From positions 1 through 35,523 of the IMG/VR virus record IMGVR_UViG_3300045988_056051: a stretch of DNA of 35,523 nucleotides, one strand, 5' to 3'. The notes beneath the pieces are model-generated. The model saw nothing but the letters and a program-made list of their open reading frames with translations. It did no database searches and was not told the DNA's origin. The stretch comes from a virus. Below are positions 161-35,523 of the stretch, in pieces. A program made the translations under genes and the position numbers. Within the stretch, counting starts at the first letter, position 1, and every line of letters starts with the position of its first letter.

Positions 161-216
161 CTGTCTGTTTATCATCGCGTTCCCTATAAATCTGGCACAA
201 GATGATAAACATTTAG
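161..216. other. Candidate attP core for the adjacent serine integrase
   Basis: Perfect 10-bp inverted repeat gtttatcatc (167-176) / gatgataaac (201-210) flanks a 24-bp AT-rich spacer. The total is about 45-55 bp, the usual size and symmetry of large-serine-recombinase attP sites. It lies directly at the 3' end of int in the only sizeable non-coding gap at the int/tail-gene junction. Confidence 0.4.
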
Positions 217-1691
217 ATTCTGAGAGTTACGCGCAGGCGTGGGTTCAATCCCGTGCCGCGCTCGGTCTTTTCATATTCTATTCGTTCCGCCATGCCTTTC
301 AGCAGGCGGTTGCGGTCTTCACTGTCGAGTGTCCAGTATTCGTCCAATGCCTTTGATAGTACCGGGATTCGTTTCAGGTCGTGTTCCGGTTCGGAGTCCT
401 GGAGGGTTTCGAGCCGTGCGAGTAGTTCCGCCTTTTCCGCGTTGACCTTTTGCACCCTTTGCAGGTATGTGGTTCTATCGTATATGCCTGTTTCGTAGGC
501 TTCGCAGGCGCGTTCGAGCATTTTCTGCCGTTTGTCTATCTCTGCCTCTAGGACTTGCAGTTCGTTGGTGTTGTCATTCGCTTTTGTTTCGTATCCCGCC
601 CACACGTAGGTCAGGCGTTCCAATTCAGCTTGTATGGCGTCCACCGTCAGCCGTTCCACTATGTCGAGTTTCGTGCTTTTGGTCGCGCAGCCGAAAGTCT
701 TGCATATGAGGTATTCGGCTTGCGCGCCGTTGGTGCGTTGCATGGTCTTGCCGCATTGAGAGCACGCGACCAACGATGCGAGCGGGTTGCGGTTGGTGTG
801 CGCGTGGCGCGTGCGCGTCTCCATCGTCTTCAGTCGCGCGGAGCATTGGTCGAACGTGTCTGCGCTGACTATCGGCTCGTGTCGGCCTTGCACGTACTCC
901 ATACCACCGTTTCGAACATATGTCTCCTTTATCTCGCCGTCGATTATCCGGCGGTTTTTTATTTTCCGTTTGGTTTGCAACTCACCGAGGTATGTTCGGT
1001 TTCGTAGTATTTCGCCGATTCTCGTTCGTGTGAATTCGTTCCCCGTGCGTTGCCTTACGCCCGAAGCTTGCAGTTCGCGGAGTATGTCGTTGATTTTTGC
1101 GCCTTCTGCGTATCGGTCGAATATGAGGCGCACGACTTGCGCCTCGCTAGGGTCAGGGCATAACGTCCACCCTTTTCCGTCCTTGCGTTTCCCGTAGCCG
1201 TATGGCGGTGTGCTGCCGATGAAATACCCGTCTTTTTGCGCTTGCAGTCGGCCGCGCAGTAGGCGGCGTTTAATCATCTTGTATTCGCGTCTCGACATGA
1301 ACAACCCGAATTCGAAGAATTCCTCGTCGAATTCATCGTCGCCCGCAAGGTCGTAAACCTTGTTCAGGGTGATTATTTTCGTGCCGCTGAATTGGAATGT
1401 TCGGAGTATGCGTGCTTGGTCCTCCCCGTTTCCACGGCTGAGGCGTTCGAGTTCGACGCATAGGACGCCGGTATACAGTCCCATCTCCACGGCCTTCAGC
1501 AGGCGTTGCATTTGAGGGCGCGCGTCTATGCTCTCTCCCGATACGATTTCTCTGTATATGTGTCTTTCGTCTATGTGTATTCCCATGTTCGCGGCCATGT
1601 CGCGGAGCATGGTTTCGTGTTTGCTTAGCGTGTTCTCTATCCCTGCTTCTTCATCTATGCGGGATTTCCTTAAGTACATCGCGTATGCCAT
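213..1691 (-). CDS. int: Large serine recombinase (phage integrase)
   Basis: 492 aa. N-terminal resolvase-type catalytic domain (MAYAMYLRKSRIDEE... with the catalytic Ser in RKS, then VLCVELERLSRGN). A recombinase domain follows, then a zinc-ribbon (CSQCGKTMQR...CKTFGC) and a C-terminal coiled coil. Confidence 0.93.
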   Translation of the reverse strand: MAYAMYLRKSRIDEEAGIENTLSKHETMLRDMAANMGIHIDERHIYREIVSGESIDARPQMQRLLKAVEMGLYTGVLCVELERLSRGNGEDQARILRTFQFSGTKIITLNKVYDLAGDDEFDEEFFEFGLFMSRREYKMIKRRLLRGRLQAQKDGYFIGSTPPYGYGKRKDGKGWTLCPDPSEAQVVRLIFDRYAEGAKINDILRELQASGVRQRTGNEFTRTRIGEILRNRTYLGELQTKRKIKNRRIIDGEIKETYVRNGGMEYVQGRHEPIVSADTFDQCSARLKTMETRTRHAHTNRNPLASLVACSQCGKTMQRTNGAQAEYLICKTFGCATKSTKLDIVERLTVDAIQAELERLTYVWAGYETKANDNTNELQVLEAEIDKRQKMLERACEAYETGIYDRTTYLQRVQKVNAEKAELLARLETLQDSEPEHDLKRIPVLSKALDEYWTLDSEDRNRLLKGMAERIEYEKTERGTGLNPRLRVTLRI

Positions 1692-1697
1692 GCATAT

Positions 1698-1997
1698 CTA
1701 GTCCTTTCGTCGGTGTAGTAAAAATTGTGCAAATAGTTGTATTTCTTCAAGTTCTTTGTCGGTGTAAATCCGGTTTGAAAAAGTTATCTCCCGTTGTGGC
1801 GTGCCGTGCACTAATTCCTCAATCGTTACACCGAAATACTCAGATAATTTAAGCAATGTCGGCAAGCTGATATTTTCGGCGCTCCGGTTGAACCATGAAT
1901 TTACCGCCGATGGGCTGATGCCGCAGTCTGCCGCCATCTTTCGACGTGATACGCCTTTTGCGCTCATAAGTGCGCGAAGATTGTCGCAAAATGCCAT
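1698..1997 (-). CDS. XRE/cI-like HTH repressor
   Basis: ORF 1698..2042 trimmed to the ATG at 1997, which has a GGGGG SD 9 nt upstream on the - strand. HTH motif: SRRKMAADCGISPSAVNSWFNR. It lies 6 nt upstream of int, is co-oriented with it, and is divergent from the cro-like gene. Confidence 0.85.
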   Translation of the reverse strand: MAFCDNLRALMSAKGVSRRKMAADCGISPSAVNSWFNRSAENISLPTLLKLSEYFGVTIEELVHGTPQREITFSNRIYTDKELEEIQLFAQFLLHRRKD

Positions 1998-2053
1998 GTC
2001 GTAAAACCCCCTTTCGTGTCGAAACGTCATCGTTCCGTGCATTTCGCCTCTTT

Positions 2054-2224: not shown

Positions 2225-2446
2225 ATGTATCGCAATCTGAAAGCGGAGATAGCTCGCGCAGGCATGACCACTTGCGAGTGTGCGGAAGCCGCAGGAGTAA
2301 GCCTTGGGACTTTCTACAGGCTGCTAAATGGCTCCAGCGAGTGGAGGCTTGACGAAATGCTCAAGCTGTCACAGGCAATCGCCATGAAAAACGGCCACGC
2401 CGGCTTGGACTATCTCTTCGGGGGTGATTCGGACGGAACGACATAA
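2225..2446 (+). CDS. Cro-like small HTH regulator
   Basis: ORF 2132..2446 trimmed to the ATG at 2225, which has a GAGGAGG SD (2210-2216). 73 aa. HTH motif: MTTCECAEAAGVSLGTFYRLLNG. Divergent from the repressor. Confidence 0.8.
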   Translation: MYRNLKAEIARAGMTTCECAEAAGVSLGTFYRLLNGSSEWRLDEMLKLSQAIAMKNGHAGLDYLFGGDSDGTT

Positions 2447-4339: not shown

Positions 4340-4648
4340 ATGTTCGCAGTAATGTATGAGCCAGAACGCATGAACAGAGGCCTTGTAGAGGGCGGTGTAA
4401 CGCACGCGGTAAACGTAGACCGCATAGAGGACATTTACTTCTGGGGAGACATGGCGCGTGTTTGCCTTGTTTCGGGCGCGCAGTTCAACGTAACAAGGGC
4501 GGATGCGATTGCCATTCTGGATGTGCTCGACAATTGCCGCGGCGGCGCTTCAAAGGCGATTGCCGAGACGGAGGACGCTGGCAGGAGCCACGAGAGCGCG
4601 ATGAGCGACGTTGCAAATCTGAAGGGGGTGACGCGGGATGATTGGTAG
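4340..4648 (+). CDS. Hypothetical protein
   Basis: ORF 4301..4648 trimmed to the ATG at 4340, which has a GGGAGG SD. No motif recognised. Confidence 0.65.
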   Translation: MFAVMYEPERMNRGLVEGGVTHAVNVDRIEDIYFWGDMARVCLVSGAQFNVTRADAIAILDVLDNCRGGASKAIAETEDAGRSHESAMSDVANLKGVTRDDW

Positions 4649-6853: not shown

Positions 6854-7693
6854 ATGGATACAAGCGGAATCATCGAGGGGCTTGCCAAGGCGGCAGTCCA
6901 GAACCATAAACCGCAGGAGGGCGACTACATCAAGGACGGCCTGCTCTACTGCGGGAAGTGCCACACTCCGAAGCAGTGCGAGATTGAGTGCGGCGGCAGG
7001 GTACTCAAGCCGTATTGCATGTGCAGGTGCGAGGTCGAGCGGGAGGAAAGGCTCAAGGAAGAGGACAGGGCACGCGAGAGGATGCAGCGCGTTGACAGGA
7101 TGCGCCGCACAGGCTTCCCAGACTCAGAGATGCGTGACTGGACGTTCGCCAACGATGACGGCAAGGATTCGAAGACGATGGCCGCGATGAAGCGCTACGT
7201 CGAGAAGTTCCCGCAGATGCTGGAGAACGGCACGGGGCTGATGCTCTACGGCAACGTCGGCAGCGGGAAGAGCTTTGCGGCCGCGTGCATAGCGAACGCG
7301 CTCATCGAGAGCGGCACGCCATGCCTCATGACGAACTTCCAGCGCATTGTCAACAAACTGCAAAACGGGTTCGCCGGAAAGCAGGAGTACATCGACAGCC
7401 TTCAGAAATTCGATTTGCTGATTATTGATGATTTTGCTACCGAGCGCAGAACCGAGTACATGACGGAGCAGGTTACGGCAGTCATCGACGCCCGCTATCG
7501 CTCGAAGCTGCCACTGATAGTCACGACCAACATCAACCCCCGCGACCTCATGGGTGCCGATGGGATAGGGGAGCAGCGAATCTACAGCCGCATCATGGAC
7601 ATGTGCGTCCCCGTGGCCTTCAACGGGCAAGACCGCCGACGCTCGGACTACGCTGCGAGGACTGCGGCAGCCAAGGAGCTTCTCGGGCTGTGA
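6854..7693 (+). CDS. DnaC/IstB-like AAA+ helicase loader
   Basis: 279 aa. Walker A is GNVGSGKSF and Walker B is LLIIDDFATE. There is a Cys-rich N-terminus (CGKCHTPKQCEIECGG). AAGGAGG SD. Confidence 0.88.
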   Translation: MDTSGIIEGLAKAAVQNHKPQEGDYIKDGLLYCGKCHTPKQCEIECGGRVLKPYCMCRCEVEREERLKEEDRARERMQRVDRMRRTGFPDSEMRDWTFANDDGKDSKTMAAMKRYVEKFPQMLENGTGLMLYGNVGSGKSFAAACIANALIESGTPCLMTNFQRIVNKLQNGFAGKQEYIDSLQKFDLLIIDDFATERRTEYMTEQVTAVIDARYRSKLPLIVTTNINPRDLMGADGIGEQRIYSRIMDMCVPVAFNGQDRRRSDYAARTAAAKELLGL

Positions 7694-7995
7694 CGGAGCG
7701 CGAGCTTTCGCAGGCCGTGCATCTCAAGGCTGAGCTGGACGCACTCCGCAGGGTTGCAGCCGAAGAGAGCAGCGAGGACGTGCTGAGGGCGATTGACGCT
7801 CAGGCGCGGGCGGTCGAAGCCGCAAGGCTGGAGGTCATGGCCTTCATAGCGACGGTTCCAGACGCGAGGGCCAGGGCGATAGCGGTCATGAGGTTCCTCG
7901 AAGGGAAGAGCTGGGAGACGATAGCGAGACGGATGCACTACGAGAGAACAAGCCCAGCCAAGCAGCTCCGCAGGTTCCTCCGTGGTAGAATGTAG
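7690..7995 (+). CDS. Sigma-70 region-4-like HTH regulator (possible late/middle gene activator)
   Basis: Its GTG at 7690 overlaps the dnaC-like stop (GTGA). The upstream part of ORF 7603..7995 overlaps dnaC in another frame. C-terminal ARARAIAVMRFLEGKSWETIARRMHYERTSPAKQLRR looks like a region 4.2 HTH. Confidence 0.55.
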   Translation: MTERELSQAVHLKAELDALRRVAAEESSEDVLRAIDAQARAVEAARLEVMAFIATVPDARARAIAVMRFLEGKSWETIARRMHYERTSPAKQLRRFLRGRM

Positions 7996-8024: not shown

Positions 8025-8069
8025 GCGGCCCGCAAGTCCCGACCTTGCGGGCCGCGCCCATATATGGGC
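8025..8069 (+). other. Two adjacent GC-rich hairpins/palindromes after the regulator gene
   Basis: gcggcccgcaag (8025-8036) pairs perfectly with cttgcgggccgc (8044-8055). A perfect palindrome gcccatatatgggc (8056-8069) follows, and then an A-run rather than a U-tract. Confidence 0.5.
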
Positions 8070-8076
8070 AAAAAAG

Positions 8077-8158
8077 TTTCGGATTCTCGCTTGCGACTGC
8101 TCGGTATAGGTATATACTAGTAACCGCAATAGGGGAAAGCGAGAGAAAGGAACCCCAA
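8077..8158 (+). promoter_or_regulatory. Repeated promoter-leader cassette, copy A
   Basis: tttcggattctcgc (8077-8090), TTGCGA (8091-8096), 16-nt spacer, TATACT (8113-8118), purine-rich leader with GAGAGAAAGGAA (8141-8152), then ATG at 8159. Alignable along its length with copies B and D. Confidence 0.6.
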
Positions 8159-8344
8159 ATGGCAAACACAATCTTCGATACTGACTTCCAGCCCGACGAT
8201 GAGGTTCTTCTTTACGAAGGCTCACGGTTCCATTGGAGCGGAAAGGTCGGTGACATGACGGAATCCGACAAGGAGGATTACGACGTGGCAACGTGGTTCC
8301 TTCTGGATAAGGTTGAGGATTACAAGGCGCTCTTCGTAAGGTAG
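8159..8344 (+). CDS. Small acidic hypothetical protein (61 aa)
   Basis: The ATG at 8159 lies inside ORF 7982..8344, directly after the conserved leader. Peptide: MANTIFDTDFQPDDEVLLYEGSRFHWSGKVGDMTESDKEDYDVATWFLLDKVEDYKALFVR. A strong terminator follows. Confidence 0.7.
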   Translation: MANTIFDTDFQPDDEVLLYEGSRFHWSGKVGDMTESDKEDYDVATWFLLDKVEDYKALFVR

Positions 8345-8347
8345 AGG

Positions 8348-8380
8348 AAGCCCCCCAGAAATGGGGGGCTTTTTTATTTT
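8348..8380 (+). terminator. Intrinsic terminator
   Basis: aagcccccc (8348-8356) pairs with ggggggctt (8363-8371) across a 6-nt loop, followed by ttttttatttt. Confidence 0.85.
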
Positions 8381-8386
8381 GAAAAA

Positions 8387-8467
8387 TTTCCGATTCTCGC
8401 GTGCGCAACGTGGATATAGGTGTATACTTGCAATAGCAAGAGGGGAAGAGAGAGAAAGGAAACCCCA
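8387..8467 (+). promoter_or_regulatory. Repeated promoter-leader cassette, copy B
   Basis: tttccgattctcgc (8387-8400), GTGCGC (8401-8406), 16-nt spacer, TATACT (8423-8428), GAGAGAAAGGAA (8450-8461), then ATG at 8468. Confidence 0.6.
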
Positions 8468-8623
8468 ATGAAGGTTACGACGTTCAGCATCAACACCACG
8501 GACGGCAAGCGCTACGGGCTCAAGAACGCAAAGACTGGACAAGTTCTCTACGGAGCCACCGCAAAGTACAAGACCGAGAGCGGAGCAGTCAACTACGCAA
8601 AGCGCCACGGATACGAGTTCTAA
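8468..8623 (+). CDS. Small basic hypothetical protein (51 aa)
   Basis: The ATG at 8468 lies inside ORF 8420..8623, after the conserved leader. Peptide: MKVTTFSINTTDGKRYGLKNAKTGQVLYGATAKYKTESGAVNYAKRHGYEF. Confidence 0.65.
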   Translation: MKVTTFSINTTDGKRYGLKNAKTGQVLYGATAKYKTESGAVNYAKRHGYEF

Positions 8624-8679
8624 CCGTAAGCCCTCGGAAACGGCGGCTTTTCCATGCCAGGAATTGCCGCTTAAAAAAT

Positions 8680-8806
8680 CACCGAGAAGGCTTCCCTTTT
8701 CTTAAATATCAGTATATACTTAGATACATCAGGAAGGGAAAGGGCAAACGGCACATACCATCGAGATACAGGCCGTCACTGCGAATCCCAGAGAGAAAGG
8801 AACGTT
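8680..8806 (+). promoter_or_regulatory. Partial/diverged copy C of the promoter-leader cassette
   Basis: caccgagaaggc (8680-8691), TATACT (8715-8720) and GAGAGAAAGGAA (8791-8802) precede the ATG at 8807. The -35 is poor and the leader is longer (about 85 nt) with a direct AGATACA repeat. Confidence 0.4.
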
Positions 8807-8992
8807 ATGGAGAAAGTGGACGGGCGCGAACGCTACGAGGTGCGCGGGATACGACACACGCGCTTCCCGTGGCAGCTCAGGGCCGCTGGCGCAGCGGTCG
8901 GGTTCATCGGACTCTGCTGGGTTATCGAGTACGTGTTGATACCGGCTGTGTTGTGGGCGGTACTCGCTCTGTTCGGGGAGGTTCCGGCATGA
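8807..8992 (+). CDS. Small membrane protein (61 aa)
   Basis: Basic N-terminus followed by a hydrophobic stretch, AAVGFIGLCWVIEYVLIPAVLWAVLALFG. Its stop overlaps the rusA start (ATGA). Confidence 0.65.
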   Translation: MEKVDGRERYEVRGIRHTRFPWQLRAAGAAVGFIGLCWVIEYVLIPAVLWAVLALFGEVPA

Positions 8993-9378
8993 CGGCCCGC
9001 ATCGAGTTCTCGGTCGGTCTCGTGGCTGGCCTGAGAGCAGAGAGGGAAGTCACGGCGGCATGCGAGGAGGCGATGGGCGCGGCAGATATCAAGGCCCCGG
9101 CCTTCGGTCCGCACGAGCCGGTGATAGCCGCCATCGACGTCTACAGGCCGCTGCCGGACAGCAGACAGAGGTGCGTGCGCTCGGAGCCGGACACCTTCAA
9201 GCCCGACGCCGTAAGCGAGGCCAAGCTGGTCATTGACGCGCTGACCGGGGTTGCGTGGGCCGACGATGCGCAGGTTGTAGACCTGCACGTGAGGAAGCAC
9301 CCGAGGGTGCGCGGGCAGGCCGAGCGCATGGACATAACGGTAGCGCCGGGATGGCGCGGTAACGAAACGGAGGACTAG
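8989..9378 (+). CDS. rusA: RusA-family Holliday junction resolvase
   Basis: ATG at 8989 inside ORF 8869..9378. The motif KPDAVSEAKLVIDALTGVAWADDAQVVDLHVRK matches the RusA signature (KPD.DN..K...DAL......DD.qV). Confidence 0.8.
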   Translation: MTARIEFSVGLVAGLRAEREVTAACEEAMGAADIKAPAFGPHEPVIAAIDVYRPLPDSRQRCVRSEPDTFKPDAVSEAKLVIDALTGVAWADDAQVVDLHVRKHPRVRGQAERMDITVAPGWRGNETED

Positions 9379-9380
9379 CT

Positions 9381-9890
9381 ATGGCATACAGCGACTACGG
9401 CGCGTTCGTGTACCTCAACGGCGAGCGCAGAACCGATAAGGAGGACGTGGGCGTATACGACACCGACGAGGCTTCCCTGCCTACTGGACTACGCGTGTAC
9501 GTGAACATCATGAAGCACCCTGACGGATTCGAGTGGTTCGAGTTCTCGCACCATGGAGTCATGGGAGACGGCATCGTCCGCGTCGGGTGCTACAAGCAGT
9601 ATTGGCCGGAGGTCTACGAGTGGGAGGACGGCAAGGACAAGCCGACCGTATACACGTTCGATGACCTTTCCCGCAAGTTCGGGTGGGACGATTACGAGGA
9701 GTACGGCGACACGAGGTACGCCGCCGACAAGTACGACGAGGAGTTCGACTTCCTTGGATGGCACTTCCACTTCTGGGGCAACGATTCCGACGATACCCCG
9801 AGGTACGGTGCGACCATGAGCCGCGACGGAGAGACCTGGGAGTGCGACTACGACTGTATGTTTGGAGCTGGTTTCGATGACATTCACTAG
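9381..9890 (+). CDS. Hypothetical acidic, aromatic-rich protein
   Basis: 169-aa ORF with a GGAGGA SD. No motif recognised. Confidence 0.7.
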   Translation: MAYSDYGAFVYLNGERRTDKEDVGVYDTDEASLPTGLRVYVNIMKHPDGFEWFEFSHHGVMGDGIVRVGCYKQYWPEVYEWEDGKDKPTVYTFDDLSRKFGWDDYEEYGDTRYAADKYDEEFDFLGWHFHFWGNDSDDTPRYGATMSRDGETWECDYDCMFGAGFDDIH

Positions 9891-10065
9891 CGAAGAGCGC
9901 TGCGAGGTGGCGCAAGAGCTGAGAAAGCAAGCTGCGTATTGCGACGGCTCATTATCCGAATGGTGGCAGCGGTTGCAAGATACCGTGACGGGTGAGGTTG
10001 ATTTCGCAGACCCGAAAGCGACCTTCAATGCTATTGCAGACCTTATCGACATTACCGATGAATAG
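9877..10065 (+). CDS. Hypothetical small protein ending in the ADLID motif
   Basis: ORF 9862..10065 trimmed to the ATG at 9877. Sequence: MTFTSEERCEVAQELRK...WWQRLQDTV...AIADLIDITDE. Confidence 0.6.
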   Translation: MTFTSEERCEVAQELRKQAAYCDGSLSEWWQRLQDTVTGEVDFADPKATFNAIADLIDITDE

Positions 10066-10085
10066 CGATGCGAGGTGAATGAGTG

Positions 10086-10508
10086 ATGCAGGACTACCAA
10101 ACGCTGGCCCTGAGCTACGCCGAAGAGCTGTCCGACCTAAAGCGTCGGTACGCAAACCTTGAGTGCCACTGCCGAGGACTCGAATCGAAGCTATCCAAGA
10201 CGCGCGGCCGCATGAAGATGTACCGCACGAGGTGTAAGGCGTGGGAGAGGGCGTTGGCCAACGTGGACAGTCTTCATTGGTGCTTTATGCGTGATGAAAA
10301 ACCAGCGTCATCGGATATGGCATATGGCGTAGCGGCATGCGCCGCGCTCATCCGCAAAGAGGTGGCGCCGACCTATCCGAGTGCCGATTGCGCGGAGCTG
10401 CGCACCAAGGTTCTCAACCGATTCCCCTCACCAGAGGTGGACAAAAACGGCATATTTCCAATGAGCAAAGGAGAGAACAATGGCAAACTACACACCGACT
10501 TGCAGTGA
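10086..10508 (+). CDS. Hypothetical coiled-coil protein
   Basis: ORF 10083..10508 (GTG). The ATG at 10086 lies 8 nt after GAGGTG. No motif recognised. Confidence 0.65.
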   Translation: MQDYQTLALSYAEELSDLKRRYANLECHCRGLESKLSKTRGRMKMYRTRCKAWERALANVDSLHWCFMRDEKPASSDMAYGVAACAALIRKEVAPTYPSADCAELRTKVLNRFPSPEVDKNGIFPMSKGENNGKLHTDLQ

Positions 10509-10947
10509 GTACAGCATCGATGTACCGGCACCGAAGGATGCCGAGGGCCGCAGGGTGCTTCTGGATACCAAGGTGATGTACAACGACGCCGGTGTCGAGT
10601 ACATGGTCAGCGGTTTCGTCTTCGATACGAGAAAACTTGCCGCAGGCTGGGACGTTAAATGCTTCACGCCGTCCGATGACATCGTGTACACGCGCCAGCT
10701 CGATTCCATGCACCTAGAGAAGCCGGACAGCCTCAAGCAGCTAGCGGAAGACCTCAACCGCGTGCAGGCCAAGCACGACGCCAACGGCACTCTCTACAGG
10801 GAGCTGGTATGCTGCTATGTTGGACGACTCGGCGTGACGTGTATGTGTAATGGGTGCCGACTCAATTGCGGAGACAAGACGTGCTTCGAGGCTATGATGG
10901 CCGACATCGTATCGCGTGTGAACCGTCTGGCCGGTGATTCCGAATGA
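10480..10947 (+). CDS. Hypothetical Cys-rich protein, tandem paralog 1
   Basis: 155 aa with an AGGAGA SD. It shares with the next gene: P(K/R)DA.G..(V/I).LDTKV(M/L)Y, PDS..(Q/K)L.EDL.R, and a Cys cluster followed by (M/R)DI(V/A)SR(V/I).(R/K)L.G. Confidence 0.75.
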   Translation: MANYTPTCSEYSIDVPAPKDAEGRRVLLDTKVMYNDAGVEYMVSGFVFDTRKLAAGWDVKCFTPSDDIVYTRQLDSMHLEKPDSLKQLAEDLNRVQAKHDANGTLYRELVCCYVGRLGVTCMCNGCRLNCGDKTCFEAMMADIVSRVNRLAGDSE

Positions 10948-11357
10948 TTGAGCTACCTAGAGACGCTAATGGCCATGTGATCCCGCTTGATACCAAAGTG
11001 CTGTACAGGAAAGACGGAACCTTGGTCGACGTGGATGAGTTTAACTTCAGCACGGGATACTCAGACCCTGAACACAAGTGGACTGTCAGGCTTATGAACT
11101 GTGCAGTCTTTTTCACAACGAAAATGTTCCTAAACCCGCCGGAGCCGCCCGACAGCTGGGAGAAGCTTGAGGAGGACTTGGCAAGAGCGGCGGAAGCGCT
11201 GAATTACGAAGTCTGCGCCTATCTTGGCGAGAGTGCGTGCGACTGTTCATCATGCATCGCCGGCAAAAGCGGAACCTGCGAAAGGGTTGTCATGCGCGAC
11301 ATCGCATCCCGCATCCGAAAGCTGAGGGGCGAGGTTTCAACATGGCGAACGCCATGA
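10944..11357 (+). CDS. Hypothetical Cys-rich protein, tandem paralog 2
   Basis: 137 aa with an ATGA overlap to paralog 1. It has the same three conserved blocks as 10480..10947. Confidence 0.75.
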   Translation: MIELPRDANGHVIPLDTKVLYRKDGTLVDVDEFNFSTGYSDPEHKWTVRLMNCAVFFTTKMFLNPPEPPDSWEKLEEDLARAAEALNYEVCAYLGESACDCSSCIAGKSGTCERVVMRDIASRIRKLRGEVSTWRTP

Positions 11358-11394
11358 AGATGGACGTGAACGACCTAGTTGTGAAGGGGAACGA

Positions 11395-11757
11395 ATGATT
11401 ACCGATAAGGAGCGCCACGAGAGGGCCAAGAACTTTCGAGATATGATTAGCGCTAGGAACTATGGTATACCTGGGGCGCTCGGCTCCTTCGTCGACATCG
11501 ATGACGTGCTTTCGGAATTGCTAGACCGCCGAGTGTATGACAGCGAGAAGGCTATCGATGCTTGCGACGCTCTTGGAATTGCCGACCTAATCGACCGCCC
11601 GACATGCCTCTTGGAACTTACCGACGTTGAGACCCACGGAAACGCCAAGGTAAGAATCTACGAATGCAGCGAGTGCGGCAGGACTTGCGAAGAGATATAC
11701 GGCAAGTATGAGCGCTGCCCGCATTGCGGGGCGGTGACTGTAGATGCCGAGCACTAA
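11395..11757 (+). CDS. Hypothetical protein with C-terminal zinc ribbon
   Basis: 120 aa. It contains GIADLIDRPTC and CSECGRTCEEIYGKYERCPHCG. Confidence 0.7.
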   Translation: MITDKERHERAKNFRDMISARNYGIPGALGSFVDIDDVLSELLDRRVYDSEKAIDACDALGIADLIDRPTCLLELTDVETHGNAKVRIYECSECGRTCEEIYGKYERCPHCGAVTVDAEH

Positions 11758-11959
11758 GGAGAAGCGCGAGGCCGTCGAGTTCCTGCGAACCCACAGGTGC
11801 GCCGACGAGGGCAGCGCGTACAAGACCGTAGGCAACTGCTACGGGTGCATCAAGGCGAGCAGGGCGCTGTTCGGGAACGATGACGCGCTCTGCAACCTAG
11901 ACAGCTCGGGGCCGGGAATGTGGCAGAGGCTGGCAGACCTAATCGAAGGGAAGAACTGA
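11744..11959 (+). CDS. Hypothetical small protein ending in ADLIE
   Basis: 71 aa. C-terminus: GMWQRLADLIEGKN. It overlaps the neighbouring genes on both sides. Confidence 0.6.
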   Translation: MPSTKEKREAVEFLRTHRCADEGSAYKTVGNCYGCIKASRALFGNDDALCNLDSSGPGMWQRLADLIEGKN

Positions 11960-12318
11960 TGAATCAGGACGCAATCAAGGAAATCGCGAAGCAGTTGGGC
12001 GTGGGGGCGAACTATCTCGCCGAGCACCTCGTGGACTTCGCGCCGCAGTGGGGCATGTTCAAGGCGATTCAGGACTTGGCGGGAGTCCTGCCGATGGGTT
12101 TCATCCTCGCGCTCATCGTCTTCGTCATGCGCAAGGCCTTGAAGACGGAAGGCGACGAGGCATGGGGCTACGACAAGCCCTTCGTCGTGGTCGTACTCAC
12201 TGCATTCGGATTGGTTGCGCTCGTAATCTTCGGGTGCTTCGCCGTGGACGCCGTTATGCATCTGGCCGTTCCGCAAGTGGCGATGATTAACGACATGCTG
12301 GAGATGGTGCAGCAATGA
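11959..12318 (+). CDS. Membrane protein (2 predicted TM helices)
   Basis: ATG at 11959 inside ORF 11920..12318, overlapping the previous stop. Hydrophobic segments: LAGVLPMGFILALIVFVM and PFVVVVLTAFGLVALVIFGCFAV. Confidence 0.7.
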   Translation: MNQDAIKEIAKQLGVGANYLAEHLVDFAPQWGMFKAIQDLAGVLPMGFILALIVFVMRKALKTEGDEAWGYDKPFVVVVLTAFGLVALVIFGCFAVDAVMHLAVPQVAMINDMLEMVQQ

Positions 12319-12370
12319 TGAGGGACACCGACATGCTGGCAGACTTAATCGACAACCGGAGGTGATGCGC

Positions 12371-12544
12371 ATGGCAACTGAAGCGCAAATCAAGGCCCAG
12401 AAGAAGTACGACGCGGAGAATACGCGGCAGGTTCACCTGAAGCTGAACCGCCGCACCGACGGGGATGTTCTGGAAAAGCTAGACAGCGTGCCCAGCAAGC
12501 AGGGCTACATCAAGAAGCTGATACGCGCCGATTTGAAAAAATAG
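12371..12544 (+). CDS. Ribbon-helix-helix (Arc/CopG-like) DNA-binding protein
   Basis: The ATG at 12371 lies 8 nt after GGAGG (12358-12362). 57 aa. Pattern: KKYDAENTRQVHLKLNRRTDGDVLEKLDSVPSKQGYIKKLIRADL (beta strand plus two helices). A strong terminator follows. Confidence 0.65.
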   Translation: MATEAQIKAQKKYDAENTRQVHLKLNRRTDGDVLEKLDSVPSKQGYIKKLIRADLKK

Positions 12545-12550
12545 GAACTA

Positions 12551-12584
12551 ACGGGAATCCGAGAGGGTTCCCGTTTTTTATTTT
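12551..12584 (+). terminator. Intrinsic terminator
   Basis: acgggaatcc (12551-12560) pairs with gggttcccgt (12565-12574), including one G-U pair, across a GAGA loop. It is followed by ttttttatttt. Confidence 0.85.
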
Positions 12585-12591
12585 GAGAAAA

Positions 12592-12672
12592 CTTCCGAGG
12601 TGAGCCTGCATAAGGTCGTTATATGTGTATACTAGTATCAGCAAGTGAGGAAGAGAGAAAGGAAACCATAAA
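12592..12672 (+). promoter_or_regulatory. Repeated promoter-leader cassette, copy D
   Basis: cttccgaggtgagc (12592-12605), CTGCAT (12606-12611), 16-nt spacer, TATACT (12628-12633), GAGAGAAAGGAA (12653-12664), then ATG at 12673. The preceding terminator tail TTTTTTATTTTGAGAAAA matches that of copy B. Confidence 0.6.
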
Positions 12673-12891
12673 ATGGAAATCCAAGCTTACAAGTACGGAA
12701 TGCGCCTGCGCCCCTACGACATCGGTTGCCAGCCAAAGGATGGGTTCGTATGCGTGGCGGAAGGCGGAACAGCCGATGGCAACAGGTACCACAACTTCAT
12801 CTACTACATCAGCAAGCTCGATAGGGAGACCGCAGACAACTACGACCTCGATTACCTCGGAGTCAAGTTTCTCAAGGCAGAAGAGATGTAA
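12673..12891 (+). CDS. Small hypothetical protein (72 aa), candidate anti-defence/accessory protein
   Basis: Sequence: MEIQAYKYGMRLRPYDIGCQPKDGFVCVAEGG...YHNFIYYISKLDRETADNYDLDYLG. It is driven by cassette D and followed by a terminator. Confidence 0.7.
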   Translation: MEIQAYKYGMRLRPYDIGCQPKDGFVCVAEGGTADGNRYHNFIYYISKLDRETADNYDLDYLGVKFLKAEEM

Positions 12892-12912
12892 AAGCAGAAA
12901 GAGATGCAGCAT

Positions 12913-12945
12913 GAAGGCCCCAGCAATGTGGCCTTCTTTATCGTT
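12913..12945 (+). terminator. Intrinsic terminator candidate
   Basis: gaaggcc (12913-12919) pairs with ggccttc (12930-12936) across a 10-nt loop, followed by tttatcgtt. Confidence 0.5.
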
Positions 12946-12976
12946 CCCGCAATTCCCGCTCCGCGTGTCGTATAAT
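12944..12976 (+). promoter_or_regulatory. Candidate lysis/late promoter: perfect -10 box with tandem TTCCCGC repeats in place of a -35
   Basis: TATAAT at 12971-12976. Direct repeat TTCCCGC-AA-TTCCCGC at 12944-12959. No recognisable -35 hexamer at 17-bp spacing. Confidence 0.45.
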
Positions 12977-15099: not shown

Positions 15100-15156
15100 C
15101 ATAGGGGAACGCTGTGGATAACTTGGGGGGGGGAACAATCCCCCCCCTACCCTATG
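15100..15156. other. Nested palindrome with G9/C8 homopolymer arms; candidate cos/terminase recognition element
   Basis: Outer arms CATAGGG (15100-15106) / CCCTATG (15150-15156). Inner arms G9 (15125-15133), AACAAT, C8 (15140-15147). It lies in a 283-bp non-coding region (15073-15355) that also has ATAGGGGAACGC (15101), TATGGGGAA (15152), rc-TATGGGGGAACGC (15306-15319) and GCGATTATC twice. Confidence 0.4.
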
Positions 15157-16694: not shown

Positions 16695-16769
16695 GCGGCG
16701 CTAGCTCAGTGGCAGAGCGCCCCGAGACCATCGGGGAGACGGGGGTTCGATTCCCACCGCACCGCTCCA
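16695..16769 (+). tRNA. tRNA-like gene (Gly-like scaffold) with a non-canonical anticodon loop; possibly a pseudo- or specialised tRNA
   Basis: Hand-folded. Acceptor GCGGCGC/GCACCGC (one C-A mismatch), discriminator U, encoded CCA. D-arm GCTC-AGTGGCA-GAGC. Anticodon stem CCCCG/CGGGG with loop AGACCAU (G at position 33 instead of U; nominal anticodon ACC). T-arm GGGGG-TTCGATT-CCC(A)CC with a bulged A. Confidence 0.55.
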
Positions 16770-18859: not shown

Positions 18860-19489
18860 ATGAGTTATACGGTATACATGCACATAACACCAAGCGGTAA
18901 AAGATATATCGGCATTACATGCAGGAAGCCAGAATACAGATGGAACAACGGCAAGGGATATGAAGCCAATAAGCACTTTCACAACGCGATTAATAAATAC
19001 GGTTGGGACAACATAAAGCACGTAATCGTATTGAGCGGAGTTTCGAAAGAACGCGCTTGTGAAGTCGAAAAGAACCTTATAAACAAGTTCGACACAACAA
19101 ACAGCGAGAAGGGATACAACCACAGCACTGGCGGTGAATGCGGTGGCGCTGGAGTTGCTTTCACGAAAGAGCGCAGGCGCAAGATAGGTGAAGCCCATAA
19201 GGGCATGAAACATACCGCCGAAGCAAGAAAGAAAATGAGCGAAGCGCATACTGGCTTGCAGACATGGAACAAAGGTCGGCATTGGACGTCAGCCGAAAAA
19301 GAAGTAATGGCGGCAGCTCAAAGGACTCACAAGGAAATTAGATGCGTTGAGACGGGGGCGACATACCTGAGCACAAGGGACGCAGAGAGAAAAACGGGGA
19401 TAAACCGCTCTTCGATATGCGGCTGCTTGCGCAAGAGGAAGAACTGCAAAACAGCAGGCGGTTACCACTGGGAATACGCGCAGAATTAA
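18860..19489 (+). CDS. Free-standing GIY-YIG homing endonuclease with NUMOD-type DNA-binding repeats
   Basis: ATG at 18860 inside ORF 18692..19489. Motifs: YTVYMHITPSGKRYIGIT (GIY-YIG), EKGYNHSTGG, repeated K.GEAHKGMKHT/KMSEAHTG (NUMOD3-like), and C-terminal GGYHWEY. It is visibly AT-richer than its flanks. Confidence 0.88.
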   Translation: MSYTVYMHITPSGKRYIGITCRKPEYRWNNGKGYEANKHFHNAINKYGWDNIKHVIVLSGVSKERACEVEKNLINKFDTTNSEKGYNHSTGGECGGAGVAFTKERRRKIGEAHKGMKHTAEARKKMSEAHTGLQTWNKGRHWTSAEKEVMAAAQRTHKEIRCVETGATYLSTRDAERKTGINRSSICGCLRKRKNCKTAGGYHWEYAQN

Positions 19490-29524: not shown

Positions 29525-29869
29525 ATGGCGAAGATAGACGAGACCGTCAAGGTGATGCTCCTCAAAGGGGAAGCTGGAGCGAGCATCGAGTCAATCTACA
29601 AGACCGCTTCGGACGGCCTTGTAGATACGTACACCGTCAAGATGACTGACGGGACGGAGAGCAGTTTCTACGTCAAGAACGGGCGCGACGGCGAGAAGGG
29701 CGAGAAGGGAGACACCGGAAGCTCAATCTCGGTGCCCGTTTCTGGACTTTTCAACCTTGGCGTCGATTCTGACGGAAATCTAATCGCAAGCTATAATGAT
29801 GCAGGCACGGGCGAAGCACCCAAGTTCGAATATGACCGCGAGAGCGGAAACGTATACTACATAATCTAG
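29525..29869 (+). CDS. Short fibre-module protein (shared N-module, mini collagen stretch, shared C-module)
   Basis: 114 aa with an AGGAGG SD. N-module: GASIESIYKTASDGLVDTYTVKMTDGTESSFYVKNG. Then GEKGEKGDTG. C-module: VPVSGLFNLGVDSDGNLIASYNDA...PKFEYDRESGNVYYII. Confidence 0.8.
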   Translation: MAKIDETVKVMLLKGEAGASIESIYKTASDGLVDTYTVKMTDGTESSFYVKNGRDGEKGEKGDTGSSISVPVSGLFNLGVDSDGNLIASYNDAGTGEAPKFEYDRESGNVYYII

Positions 29870-29882
29870 ATGGGGGTATTCT

Positions 29883-30800
29883 GTGGCTAAAATTCTAGTT
29901 GGAAACGTAAAGGGAGACAAGGGTGAGGACGGGCGCGGAATCTCAAAAATCGAGAAGACCGCTAGTTCTGGGCTTGTAGATACCTACACCGCCACTTTTT
30001 CTGACGGCAGCGCCGCTGGCAGCTTCACCGTCACCAACGGCGCGAAGGGCGCGAAGGGAGACACAGGAGCACAAGGGCCGAAGGGTCTCAAAGGAGACAC
30101 CGGAGCGACCGGCCCACAAGGGCCGCAGGGTATCAAGGGAGACACCGGAGCGACCGGCCCCAAGGGCGCGACCGGTGCTCCGCTAAAAACATCGTCCATC
30201 CAGTACCAAGCGGGGGCGAGCAACACCACACCACCCTCGGGGACGTGGAGCAACAGCGTAGTGTCAGCCCCACAGGGTCAGTACCTTTGGACTAAGCTCA
30301 CCTATTCTGACGGTTCAGTATCCTACAGCGTCGCAAGGCAGGGGCATGACGGGGCTACCGGCGCGAAGGGAGACAAGGGAGACACAGGCCCACAAGGGCC
30401 GCAGGGTCTCAAGGGGGCCACAGGCCCACAAGGGCCGCAGGGTCTCAAGGGAGACACAGGCGCACGAGGGCCGCAGGGTCTCAAGGGAGACACAGGCCCA
30501 CAAGGGCCGCAGGGTCTCAAGGGAGACACAGGCGCACAAGGGCCGCAGGGTCTCAAGGGAGACACAGGCGCACAAGGGCCGCAGGGTCTCAAGGGAGACA
30601 AGGGAGACAAGGGAGACACAGGCGCAAAGGGAGACAAGGGAGATGCAGGTATTACAGTGCCTGCATCTGGGCTTTTCTCGCTTGGTGTAGATAACGATGG
30701 GAACCTTGTCGCATATTACAGCGACGCAGCAAGCACCCCACCAAGATTCGAATACGATAGAAGCACTGGAAACGTCTATTATATAATTCAGGAGGGATAA
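29883..30800 (+). CDS. Collagen-like tail fibre protein
   Basis: 305 aa with a GTG start (MAKILVGNVKG, paralogous to the neighbouring N-termini). It has two G-X-Y tracts (about 30049-30180 and 30350-30650) flanking a globular insert (IQYQAGASNTTPPSGTWSNSV...GQYLWTKLTYSDGSVSYS). The C-module is the same as in 29525..29869. Confidence 0.88.
   Translation: MAKILVGNVKGDKGEDGRGISKIEKTASSGLVDTYTATFSDGSAAGSFTVTNGAKGAKGDTGAQGPKGLKGDTGATGPQGPQGIKGDTGATGPKGATGAPLKTSSIQYQAGASNTTPPSGTWSNSVVSAPQGQYLWTKLTYSDGSVSYSVARQGHDGATGAKGDKGDTGPQGPQGLKGATGPQGPQGLKGDTGARGPQGLKGDTGPQGPQGLKGDTGAQGPQGLKGDTGAQGPQGLKGDKGDKGDTGAKGDKGDAGITVPASGLFSLGVDNDGNLVAYYSDAASTPPRFEYDRSTGNVYYIIQEG
30396..30611 (+). repeat. Six tandem 36-bp repeats encoding GPQGLKGDTG(A/P)(Q/R)
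   Basis: Near-identical units gggccgcagggtctcaagggagacacaggcgcacaa start at 30396, 30432, 30468, 30504, 30540 and 30576. They are in frame in the collagen-like CDS. Confidence 0.9.
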
Positions 30801-33702: not shown

Positions 33703-35511
33703 ATGGCATCAAGCGGAAGCATCACAGGCGCATATCGCGGCTACACGCTACGCGCTGATTGGAGCGCGGTTCAGAACGCGGCTGGCAATTATTCCGACGT
33801 GACGGTCAAGCACACGCTCGTCATCGGCCCCGCGTACTCGCTGAACATCGCTTCTCGCACGAACACATGCTCTGTCGGAGGTGTCTCGCAGGGATACACT
33901 TCTGGGGCCATCAACCAGAAGGGCGGCTCCGTCCTTCTCGGTACGACCGTCCACAGGGTGTCGCATGACGCGGACGGAACCAAGGTCGCGCAGCTTATCG
34001 ACACGTTCAACATCAACGCCACGATTGACGGCAAGAAGGTCGGGAGCATCACGGCATCTGGCTCAATCACCCTCGACAGGATAGCCAGAAACGCGACCAT
34101 CGTGACCGCCAACGACTTCACCGACGAGACGGACCCGACGCTCACCTACAGCAACCCGTCTTCGTTCTCGTGCGACGTCTCAATCGAGTTCGAGGGCGGG
34201 AGCATCACGAGGGCCGGAGCGATAAGCGGGGCAAGCGGCTCGTACACGATGCAGCTCACCGATTCGGAGCGCACGGCCCTGCGCAACGCGAGCAAGAAAT
34301 CGCAGACGCTGAAGGTCACATACGTTCTGGAAACGACCATCGACGGCACGGCGTACTACTCGCGCGCTGATAGGAAGATGAACATCGTCGATGCGGCGCC
34401 CGAGCTTGGGGCGGTCTCATATGAGGACGCCAACGCGGCAACGGTGGCGGTGACTGGGGATAAGTCGCGCATCGTCCAGAACCATTCGACGCTTGCGGTG
34501 AAAGTGCCCACCGCGACAGCAAAGAAGGGCGCGACCATCGCGAGCTACACCGTCGCATTCGGTGGGGTATCAAAGACAGTTAAGAGTTCTGGGACAGTCT
34601 CGCTCGGTGCTGTTGACGTCTCGTATTCTCAGGCGCTGACAGTCACGGCAACGGACAGCCGTGGGTTCACTGCGAGCAAATCGGTTCAGGTGACCGTCGA
34701 TGATTACAGCGCACCTACTGCGGTCATCGACCTGCACCGACTGAACAACTTCGAGCCTACGACGTACATCACCGCGAACGCGCGCTACTCGTACCTGAAC
34801 GGCAAGAACGCCGTGACAATCGCCGCGAAGTTCAAGAAGGTCTCGGATTCGAGCTACGGAACGCCAATCGAGTTGGCCGATTCAATCCAGTCCACGGTGA
34901 CGTGCGACAGGGATTCCGCCTACGACTTCGTCGTGACCATCGCGGACAGGCTGGAATCGACCGACTACAACCTCACGCTTGGAAAGGGCATCCCGTCGTT
35001 CTTCATTGACACCCAGAAATCGAGCGTCGGCGTGAACTGCCTGCCGAGCCAATCGGACGTTTTGCAACTCGGCGATTCGGCATGGCTCACAGCGCAGGGA
35101 GCCTACCCGGTCGGGGCAATCTACCTATCAGTGACCGATACTGACCCGGCTACCCTCTTCGGCGGCACTTGGGAGCGAATCTCGCAAGGTCGATTCCTCA
35201 TTGGTTCTGGAGCCAACGCAGCGAATACGACCGACTACTGGGGCGAGTACCCCGCCGGTAAAGAGAATTTCCCTGCCGGTGAGATGGGCGGCGAAGTTGA
35301 GCATACTCTCACAGTGGACGAGATTCCGGCGCACACTCACTCCGAGAGACTTGAGTGGAGCAACACCAAAGCGTGGGGACTTACCGGAACCGGGGAAGGC
35401 GCGAATGCTGTCGTTGACCAAGGCGGCGTGACGGGGGCTACTGGCGGCGGCAAGCCGCACAACAACCTTCCTCCATATCTGGTCGTGTTCATGTGGAAGC
35501 GGGTAAGCTAA
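33703..35511 (+). CDS. Baseplate/receptor-binding protein with tail-collar-like C-terminal domain
   Basis: 602 aa. N-terminus: YTLRADWSAVQNAAGNYSDVTVKHTLVIGPAYSLNI...VGGVSQGYTS...VHRVSHDADGT (DUF859-like pattern). C-terminus: PVGAIYLSVTDTDPATLFGGTWERISQGRFLIGSG...GGEVEHTLTVDEIPAHTHS...GGGKPHNNLPPYLVVFMWKRV. Confidence 0.8.
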   Translation: MASSGSITGAYRGYTLRADWSAVQNAAGNYSDVTVKHTLVIGPAYSLNIASRTNTCSVGGVSQGYTSGAINQKGGSVLLGTTVHRVSHDADGTKVAQLIDTFNINATIDGKKVGSITASGSITLDRIARNATIVTANDFTDETDPTLTYSNPSSFSCDVSIEFEGGSITRAGAISGASGSYTMQLTDSERTALRNASKKSQTLKVTYVLETTIDGTAYYSRADRKMNIVDAAPELGAVSYEDANAATVAVTGDKSRIVQNHSTLAVKVPTATAKKGATIASYTVAFGGVSKTVKSSGTVSLGAVDVSYSQALTVTATDSRGFTASKSVQVTVDDYSAPTAVIDLHRLNNFEPTTYITANARYSYLNGKNAVTIAAKFKKVSDSSYGTPIELADSIQSTVTCDRDSAYDFVVTIADRLESTDYNLTLGKGIPSFFIDTQKSSVGVNCLPSQSDVLQLGDSAWLTAQGAYPVGAIYLSVTDTDPATLFGGTWERISQGRFLIGSGANAANTTDYWGEYPAGKENFPAGEMGGEVEHTLTVDEIPAHTHSERLEWSNTKAWGLTGTGEGANAVVDQGGVTGATGGGKPHNNLPPYLVVFMWKRVS

Positions 35512-35523
35512 GCACAAAAAAGG
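35405..35523. repeat. Terminal direct repeat, copy 2 (identical to 1-119)
   Basis: Exact 119-nt identity with the window start, read directly. Confidence 0.9.

Follow-up and report, generated by a model that had tools for sequence, protein, structure and literature searches.

A predicted terminator/promoter/ribosome-site cassette of ~100 bases, repeated before small exchangeable genes in a temperate phage lineage of the human gut

The stretch of DNA analysed here, hereafter the window, is IMG/VR virus record IMGVR_UViG_3300045988_056051 at its full length of 35,523 nucleotides. Between positions 8025 and 12945 of the window a segment of ~100 bases recurs in front of small genes, and an earlier note, drawn up from the letters alone, had taken it for a terminator-promoter-leader cassette in three to four copies, each driving one small orphan gene as an autonomous, moron-like unit. 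The copies (A to D) and the genes behind them, which bear the same letters, are the following:

8070-8158, plus strand: cassette A, with an A/T-rich stretch and TTTCGGATTCTCGC, the -35-like hexamer TTGCGA (8091-8096), TATAGGTA and TATACT (8113-8118), a 40-nucleotide purine-rich leader and the putative Shine-Dalgarno sequence GAGAGAAAGGAA (8141-8152); profile match (nhmmer) 8055-8165, E 1.4e-28
8159-8344, plus strand: gene A, 61 residues, an acidic orphan
8369-8467, plus strand: cassette B, with a T tail, GAAAAATTTCCGATTCTCGC, the hexamer GTGCGC (8401-8406), TATAGGTG and TATACT (8423-8428), the leader and the putative Shine-Dalgarno sequence (8450-8461); nhmmer match 8366-8474, E 8.6e-31
8468-8623, plus strand: gene B, 51 residues, a basic, lineage-restricted orphan
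8690-8806, plus strand: cassette C, diverged, with a weak -35, TATCAGTA and TATACT (8715-8720), an 86-nucleotide leader and the putative Shine-Dalgarno sequence (8791-8802)
8807-8992, plus strand: gene C, 61 residues, with a C terminus that is hydrophobic by eye and a stop that overlaps the RusA start (ATGA) at 8989
8989-9378, plus strand: the RusA gene
12576-12672, plus strand: cassette D, with a T tail, GAGAAAACTTCCGAG, the hexamer CTGCAT (12606-12611), TATATGTG and TATACT (12628-12633), the leader and the putative Shine-Dalgarno sequence (12653-12664); nhmmer match 12568-12677, E 5.4e-25
12673-12891, plus strand: gene D, 72 residues, a stand-alone DarA_C domain (Pfam PF18789)

The coordinates and motifs of the earlier note are present in the sequence as it described them, and translation reproduces its gene sizes of 61, 51, 61 and 72 residues. 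Pairwise local alignment revealed that A (8060-8158), B (8369-8467) and D (12576-12672) are homologous along their length, with scores well beyond those of 500 dinucleotide shuffles (z=27.5 for A-B, 26.8 for B-D and 16.6 for A-D), and a repeat search of the window recovered the three segments as one family (D4; 8060-8143, 8370-8453 and 12575-12658) with 63-71% identity. The -35-like hexamers are separated from TATACT by an identical spacer of 16 nucleotides in all three copies, as had been claimed, and B and D also have in common the upstream terminator tail TTTTTTATTTTGA(A/G)AAA, the 5' part of the repeat in these two copies being made up of the U6AUUUU tails of terminators and the GAAAAA that follows them. 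Towards the 3' end the 12-mer GAGAGAAAGGAA occurs exactly four times in the window (8141, 8450, 8791 and 12653), once in each copy including C, where 0.25 occurrences are expected from shuffles and none of 100 shuffles reached four. A, B and D are three clear copies, and C is one degraded copy, of a predicted terminator/promoter/ribosome-site cassette of ~100 bases.

This cassette is probably an insulated, portable expression unit with a promoter of the sigma-A type, the paralogous copies of which would also be substrates for homologous recombination. The U tail of the upstream intrinsic terminator would double as an A/T-rich upstream element for a promoter of the housekeeping-sigma type (nTGCAn, 16 nucleotides, TATACT); at the sequence level the promoter of A, TTGCGA-16-TATACT, agrees with the consensus at 9 of 12 positions. 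Each copy would insulate the gene behind it from upstream transcription, restart transcription and provide for efficient translation of any gene placed there, and each of A, B and D would drive a single small accessory gene with a hairpin at its end. The hairpins and promoter-like sites around the cassettes are these:

8025-8069, plus strand: double hairpin in the interval between the regulator gene (below) and cassette A; -34.5 kcal/mol, z=-5.3, with no U tract
8344-8380, plus strand: intrinsic terminator of gene A; -24.8 kcal/mol, with a C6/G6 stem and a U6AUUUU tail that is the 5' end of cassette B
8630-8653, plus strand: imperfect hairpin 3' of gene B (GCCCTCG-GAAA-CGGCGGC-TTTT), with one mismatch and four U
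12550-12586, plus strand: intrinsic terminator of the 8807-12544 operon; 11-base-pair stem and U6AUUUU, -19.4 kcal/mol, the U tail being the 5' end of cassette D
12913-12936, plus strand: hairpin 3' of gene D; -16.4 kcal/mol, z=-1.9, with a weak U tract
12971-12976, plus strand: separate TATAAT promoter-like site, which precedes a gene for a 130-residue protein, the holin and the lysin

The proposal that A, B and D are bracketed by hairpin terminators stands in part. Canonical intrinsic terminators precede B and D, whereas the double hairpin before A is followed by A6GTTT in place of a U tract and is for this reason not a canonical intrinsic terminator. On the 3' side gene A has a canonical terminator, gene B the imperfect hairpin and gene D a hairpin with a weak U tract. 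The mismatched stem position of the hairpin behind B is a C-G pair in L077 and an A-T pair in L076 (labels of this form denote related loci), and the region around it folds at -27.7 kcal/mol (z=-3.4). Among the relatives a hairpin with a T run is present before 55 of the 80 distinct cassettes and after 41 of the 80 cargo genes. These predicted signals support the description of A, B and D as single-gene units flanked by hairpins or terminators.

Copy C departs from this arrangement. Taken alone, its overall similarity to the other cassettes is marginal (z 4.4-5.0 against shuffles), the cassette profile matches it in two pieces (8706-8740, E 0.09; 8790-8811, E 1.4), and its leader is ~50 bases longer than those of A, B and D. 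It is the relatives that establish it as a real diverged member, as had been proposed from its retained TATACT: the leader of ~86 nucleotides is conserved in L060, L076 and L077, and the L060 version retains TTGCTT-N17 and GATATAGGTATATACT. The further proposal that C drives one gene as an autonomous moron did not survive the comparison. Alignment with L077 (2963-3560) and L060 (5600-6020), in which the two parent genes are separate and intact, revealed that gene C is a deletion-derived fusion of the first ~11 codons of a DUF3310-like gene with the last ~50 residues of a protein whose C terminus looks hydrophobic by eye; searches of the Pfam and PHROG type recovered no family match for it. Gene C is the first of a block of 13 genes (8807-12544) that ends at the terminator before D, and because its stop overlaps the RusA start and it lacks a terminator of its own, C is not an independent unit and instead heads a 13-gene operon. 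The degraded copy would serve to restart transcription for this RusA operon after two terminators.

Related cassettes are common in the lineage to which the phage belongs. Viral contigs were scanned for TATACT-N18-40-GAGAGAAAGGAA and metagenome contigs were scanned more strictly; both scans recovered many contigs of 30-35 kb with one to three matches apiece. A profile built from 37 distinct copies then carried the motif search over the related phages and yielded 139 copies, among them 83 distinct ones; the 69 related loci that contain them come from viral contigs and human-gut metagenomes, with one to four copies per locus as against the three, plus one diverged, in the window. From 5' to 3' the consensus comprises a T-run, AAAAA, TTTCnGATTCTCGC, nTGCAn, 16 nucleotides ending in TATAGGTG, TATACT, ~6 nucleotides, CAGCAAG, nGAGGGA, GAGAGAAAGGAA, 5-9 nucleotides and ATG, with the near-invariant block TATAGGTGTATACT around the -10 hexamer. 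The invariance of TATACT and of the 12-mer is partly a matter of ascertainment, as the fetching pattern required both; TATAGGTG, CAGCAAG, TGCA and GATTCTCGC lay outside the pattern required by the first scan, and the most conserved bases are those of TATAGGTG (the 8 nucleotides 5' of the -10), CAGCAAG near the expected start site, and GATTCTCGC 5' of the -35. In distant relatives (e.g. L022 and L014) no more than 14-36% of the locus matches the window even as protein, with identities of 40-60%, and yet the nucleotide identity of the cassettes is 75-86%. In L085, L096 and L108 TTGCAAG takes the place of CAGCAAG and GGGAAAGGAA that of GAGAGAAAGGAA, which indicates that the cassette family is wider than the search pattern.

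Behind the cassettes of the relatives lie 25 unrelated families of small proteins (34-144 residues), nearly all of them unannotated, and these are accommodated in two genomic slots. Slot 1 follows an IstB-like gene and a gene for a helix-turn-helix (HTH) protein of 101 residues, and slot 2 follows a conserved gene for a 57-residue protein and is situated just before the lysis genes. The genes that form the left borders of the two slots in the window are:

7690-7995, plus strand: HTH gene at the left border of slot 1; 101 residues (130 residues from the GTG at 7603), with a match to phrog_36 'transcriptional regulator' (E 4e-7)
12371-12544, plus strand: gene at the left border of slot 2; 57 residues, phrog_14312 (unknown function)

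Copies that are 65-85% alike over ~100 bases, in a phage with its own recombination genes (in all Gam, an Erf-like annealing protein, SSB, NinB and two resolvases), make the cassettes likely recombination substrates, and by recombination at them relatives would delete, replace and move cargo between the two slots. For the suggestion that recombination and an exchange of cargo proceed through the duplicated regulatory DNA, direct comparative support comes from chimeric cassettes, from the replacement or deletion of A and D and from families that occur in both slots, as well as from the variety of the cargo. In L077 and L078 a chimeric cassette is of the A type through the Shine-Dalgarno sequence and of the B type beyond it, and gene A is gone; in L031 gene A is likewise gone, and the remaining cassette combines the upstream flank of A with B-type sequence from TTTCCGA on. 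Judged by their junctions, these are two independent deletions of gene A with different crossover points. In L076 cassette A and gene A have been exchanged for a DUF4406 gene between positions equivalent to 8062 and 8354. At slot 2, L002 lacks gene D, with junctions at 12598 and 12936 that join the 5' part of the cassette to sequence beyond the D hairpin, and in L031 gene D is replaced and a leader-only remnant is kept. Homologues of the DarA_C gene, which in the window belongs to slot 2, occupy slot 1 of L016 and L060, and the MMNANTV cargo family occurs in both slots.

The remnant in L031 (~2695-2650, minus strand of that locus) consists of the leader/Shine-Dalgarno part ATAGCAAGAGGGAAAGAGAGAAAGGAACC fused directly behind the end of the 57-residue coding region, with no terminator or promoter, which implies that the 3' sub-module of the cassette can exist by itself.

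The crossover points of these exchanges vary by event and include the 5' A-run, the upstream A/T-rich region, the leader and the Shine-Dalgarno region, and since they vary, homologous recombination fits the exchanges and site-specific recombination does not. The phage's own Erf-like system could be their catalyst. As the repeats flank variable single genes, they might alternatively be regarded as the sites of a site-specific recombination or mobile-element system, such as integron-like attachment sites or transposon ends. Apart from the scatter of the crossovers, for which such a system was rejected as a candidate, no recombinase gene adjoins the slots, and inspection by eye of the cassette flanks and recombinant junctions, without a dedicated search, showed neither terminal inverted repeats nor target duplications; this alternative is extremely improbable.

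The most plausible reading of the 3' part of the cassette is a long Shine-Dalgarno sequence set in a purine tract that lacks structure. The distance from TATACT to ATG is 39-44 nucleotides in 32 leader variants, and in these variants as in all four copies of the window GAGAGAAAGGAA is situated 5-9 nucleotides 5' of the ATG. The CCUUUCU tail of 16S rRNA of the Gram-positive type is complementary to AGAAAGGA; the 3' end ...CCUCCUUUCU is typical of Firmicutes and Actinobacteria. As the other genes of the phage have GGAGG-type sites, the long Shine-Dalgarno sequence appears to be specific to the cassette. That leader sequence and length are kept before unrelated genes would also be expected of an RNA-level element, for instance a riboswitch, an attenuator, a small-RNA target or a protein-binding site of the CsrA type on the two GGA motifs, which are ~10 nucleotides apart; moreover, A and B can form a GGGG/CCCC stem with the Shine-Dalgarno sequence in the loop. 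RNAalifold, though, returned 0 consensus pairs for 23 leader variants, the leaders folded no better than shuffles (z -1.3 to +1.2), and several variants are purine-only, with no C after the Shine-Dalgarno sequence. The Rfam scan of the window at gathering thresholds recovered only a tRNA and no family for the leader, while scans by E-value gave only sub-threshold, terminator-like matches at 8281-8382, to leader families that contain terminators. A known RNA family or a structured leader was rejected on these grounds, and a role of the leader as an RNA element is very unlikely.

As to the promoter, recognition by the housekeeping sigma factor is what we infer, and the most likely timing of expression is early after infection or induction, given where the units lie and on which strand, the recurrence of their promoter type in C, where it would restart the RusA operon, and the survival of cassettes in relatives that have lost the adjacent HTH gene. 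Several observations weigh against the reading of the cassette as a portable sigma-A-type expression unit and recombination substrate. The promoters, the terminators and the timing are predictions at the level of consensus; in both B and D the -35-like hexamer has just 2 of 6 positions in common with TTGACA; and none of the three conserved blocks, TATAGGTG, CAGCAAG and GATTCTCGC, is a canonical sigma-A contact. In close orthologues the divergence of the cassette core is 0.11-0.14 as against 0.09-0.21 at third codon positions, and since this amounts to mild constraint only, the argument from constraint rests on the distant relatives. The cassettes hold ~13% of homology endpoints in ~3% of the sequence, though these endpoints are not independent events, and breakpoints are about as common at ordinary gene boundaries (e.g. 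near 4600, 5600, 6100, 6500, 9350, 10050 and 10400). The DUF4406 gene in slot 1 of L076 has no cassette, so that not all accessory genes of this slot carry one. Finally, neither TerL nor cassette matching identified the host of the phage.

The non-canonical blocks could instead be read by a dedicated phage or host protein (an activator, an alternative or sigma-like factor, or a repressor), in which case the promoters would be factor-dependent and the cassettes would mark a phage regulon. Conservation of the blocks outside the -35 and -10 equals or exceeds that of the hexamers themselves, and the -35 of B and D is weak; the TG of the cassette directly abuts the -10 hexamer, whereas an extended -10 element has one intervening base. 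Candidates for such a factor lie next to both slots. The 101-residue HTH protein directly 5' of slot 1 has a faint likeness to sigma region 4 (Sigma70_r4_2, E 0.035, below threshold), and the gene is called at 101 residues in L075. The 57-residue protein, the gene of which is directly 5' of the slot-2 cassette in 51 loci, appears by eye to be ribbon-helix-helix-like (a strand, QVHLKL, then two helices; no Pfam match) and is a possible regulator. Furthermore, C drives RusA and 11 more genes, and the lysis genes have a separate promoter, such that some control in the lysogen would be needed. Against these points, the 101-residue regulator is truncated or undetected in L006, L035 and L014, all of which still have cassettes, and a dependence on this neighbouring protein is weakened accordingly; tests of co-occurrence between regulator and cassette are weak, because most relatives are represented by partial loci.

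The promoter of the immunity region bears on the same question. The genes there are:

213-1691, minus strand: integrase
1698-2042, minus strand: CI-like repressor
2225-2446, plus strand: cro

The candidate cro promoter of the window carries TATGGGTGTATAGT, a further point in favour of such a factor, and had been proposed to use the same -10 context. The sharing itself is real: GGTRTATAST has three occurrences against 0.05 expected, and TATRGGTRT, also present in the cro promoter and cassettes, three against 0.13. It spans only 10-14 nucleotides, however, and over the full cassette the similarity of the cro promoter is not significant (z 0.3-1.9), with no profile match. In relatives with a different immunity region (CI ~70% and Cro ~52% identical) the cro promoter (PR) is TTGCAA-N17-TATAAT and lacks the block, while their cassettes keep it, which makes the link specific to the window and the block unlikely to be an operator of CI or Cro. 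The cro promoter was rejected as a member of the cassette family on this basis. Two candidate operators in the immunity region (2043-2224), ACACAATCGTGCGCA (2082-2096) and ACACGAATGTGCGCA (2181-2195), are both absent from cassettes A and D. Weighing both sides, factor-dependent promoters are unlikely. A broader version, in which the cassette would be the recognition unit of a dedicated control system and the slots would be co-regulated plug-in sockets for counter-defence genes exchanged by recombination in this gut lineage, has a similarly low probability. The switch region of L066, L053, L098 and L009 (CI ~70% identical) differs from that of the window, and the CI-side promoter there contains in its spacer CTATAGGTGTTCAC, which resembles the cassette core.

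The cargo of the window offers few clues to function. Gene A, which has no match in Pfam, PHROG or PDB, is the commonest slot-1 cargo family of the relatives and is absent from L076, L077, L078 and L031. Homologues of gene B are confined to 26 clusters, none of them named; its AlphaFold2 model (pLDDT, the predicted local distance difference test, 93) has a beta-beta-alpha fold with no significant structural match in PDB or BFVD. The best BFVD matches have E >=0.2, that is, at least 0.2, and a few of them are named restriction alleviation or DUF1508; they were not used as evidence. Neither A, B nor D matched a PDB sequence. Gene D matches PF18789 with 40.1 bits (cut-off 27; E 5e-10), residues 4-60 aligning with positions 2-66 of the 70 in the profile. 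The DarA_C domain takes its name from the virion anti-restriction protein DarA of phage P1, and the precise biochemical activity of the DarA domains has been called obscure, DarA_C itself being uncharacterised there (PMC5512222). The family name of gene D is thus a hint, and no more, at a putative anti-defence role of the cargo.

The designation of these units as morons applies in part. Classical morons would be constitutive units that serve the lysogen (e.g. in superinfection exclusion or defence) and are transcribed while the prophage is repressed, and not early lytic genes. A, B and D are single-gene units that each have their own promoter-like site and a downstream hairpin, A and D are extra DNA that is polymorphic in presence between close relatives, and no operator-like sequence of the immunity region lies consistently over the cassettes. 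C, by contrast, is the head of an operon, and the promoter type it exemplifies precedes a RusA operon expected to be silent in a lysogen; the units are in the early/middle lytic region and on the lytic strand; and the domain of D, named for a virion anti-restriction protein, would suit infection better, though as a family-name hint only. In base composition A, B and D do not stand out from the rest of the phage, with a G+C content (GC) of 0.505 in A, 0.538 in B and 0.525 in D and 0.66-0.75 at third codon positions (GC3), against 0.54-0.67 and 0.64-0.83, respectively, in the other genes. That A, B and D are morons in the classical sense is, all told, unlikely.

Morons of lambdoid phages were reportedly described by Juhala and Hendrix in 2000. 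As with these, A and D are single genes with their own promoter-like site and a downstream terminator (A) or hairpin (D), present or absent among collinear relatives; morons, though, are defined singly, with no common regulatory cassette, and by their expression in the prophage, where A, B and D are known as sequence. Their description also includes a deviant GC (PMC3594210), which is not seen here. The moron label fits A and D in part only and does not fit C.

At the level of sequence organisation the closest known concept, which the earlier note did not name, is the promoter-early stem-loop (PeSL) cassette, a composite terminator/promoter element of T4-like myoviruses (Arbiol et al. 2010, PMC2839356; Comeau et al. 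2014, PMC4122927). PeSLs are conserved over ~100 bp and comprise an A/T-rich region, a sigma-70 promoter, a stem-loop, a Shine-Dalgarno sequence and a start codon; they stand before orphan genes, and deletions between them leave chimeric cassettes (PMC2839356, PMC4122927). The cassettes of the window similarly combine an A/T-rich region with a sigma-70-like -35/-10 promoter, a stable stem-loop beside the promoter, and a Shine-Dalgarno sequence and start codon at the 3' end; the copies are repeated mostly before small orphan genes in variable regions, and insertions and deletions between close relatives are bounded by cassettes, a single chimeric cassette being left after deletion. The differences are equally clear. 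There is no sequence relationship between the two; the present cassettes belong to a temperate phage of ~35 kb with an integrase, a CI/Cro switch and lysis genes of the Gram-positive type, whereas the PeSL hosts are lytic T4-like myoviruses of Gram-negative bacteria; and there are three to four copies in two slots here, against ~50 PeSLs across many hyperplastic regions. The stem-loop of the present cassettes is always upstream and belongs to the preceding gene, while that of a PeSL can sit inside the promoter, and here the conserved unit extends to the leader, the Shine-Dalgarno sequence and the 8-nucleotide block 5' of the -10. The promoter and terminator activity of PeSLs, and mini-circles, were shown by experiment; the present cassettes are known from their sequence alone. 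Given the different type of phage and the lack of sequence homology, the cassette would work like a PeSL and yet be an independent instance. Among the papers searched the term PeSL occurs mainly in work on T4-like and other large lytic phages, and once each in a paper on a haloarchaeal virus and in an unrelated review.

The early promoters of T4 and the host-takeover module of SPO1 present another parallel, in that near-identical strong promoters are combined with a strong ribosome-binding site, a terminator and small orphan proteins. They are alike in being short units of uniform promoter type that encode small orphans, and they differ in that these phages are lytic and have tens of units, whereas in the present, temperate phage the units are few and there are signs of cargo exchange between them. 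In the start-associated sequences of cluster K mycobacteriophages, a conserved motif of 12-13 nucleotides is situated a few bases 5' of the start codons of some genes; the leader/Shine-Dalgarno part that occurs without a promoter in L031 resembles this situation. The cluster K sequences are, however, uncoupled from promoter and terminator and are present at many genes, while the present one is the 3' part of a larger promoter cassette.

The idea of a regulatory cassette as a recombination handle, documented so far for lytic T4-like phages (PMC2839356, PMC4122927), is hereby extended to a temperate, uncultured lineage of the human gut. The cassette provides a sequence tag for accessory genes in these phages, the 25 small cargo families a list of candidates for counter-defence or host-takeover functions, and the two slots a guide to sites at which new genes are tolerated. 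The cassette could also be of use as a compact expression part in the host of the phage.

The wider context is that of a complete genome. Positions 1-119 and 35405-35523 of the window are 100% identical, which implies a complete phage genome 35,404 bases long, the duplicated ends being either a terminal repeat or an overlap from assembly. On the plus strand cro is followed by a recombination module (Gam, the Erf-like annealing protein, SSB, NinB and a resolvase), then by a replication initiator and an IstB/DnaC-like loader, and then by the cassette region. Beyond the latter the plus strand encodes a Dp1-type holin and a GH25 lysin with choline-binding repeats, and after these ParB_N- and Mom-like genes, terminase, portal and structural genes. 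From its lysis genes the host should be Gram-positive. Human-gut metagenomes contain identical or near-identical contigs, and the metagenome matches to the cassette are all on contigs of at most 36 kb. Isolate phages gave no match to the window at the DNA level, and their closest TerL proteins are those of Lactobacillus delbrueckii phages (71%). In 185,579 species-representative genomes no exact match to the cassette was present, and the TerL matches there have 56-61% identity, the best being 61%, in Candidatus Improbicoccus and a Bacillota metagenome-assembled genome.

Some further features lie outside the cassette region. A G8...C8 hairpin (GGGGGGGGAACAATCCCCCCCC) is present at ~15127-15148, in a non-coding gap of ~280 nucleotides 5' of the ParB_N-like gene. 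The gene calls of a near-identical contig (15928-16665 and ~18860-19489) include a Mom-like gene (PF25680) and a weakly matching GIY-YIG/NUMOD3 homing-endonuclease-like gene just after TerL; in some relatives there is a ParB_N-methyltransferase fusion instead. The tRNA of the window, at 16695-16769, is a tRNA-Gly with the unusual anticodon ACC (ARAGORN), with an Rfam tRNA score of 29.9 against a gathering threshold of 29. Finally, dense repeats with a period of 9 nucleotides (GGAGACAAGGGAGACACAGGC and similar; repeat families D1-D3) at 29680-30650 would suggest a collagen-like Gly-X-Y run in an open reading frame of the late region.

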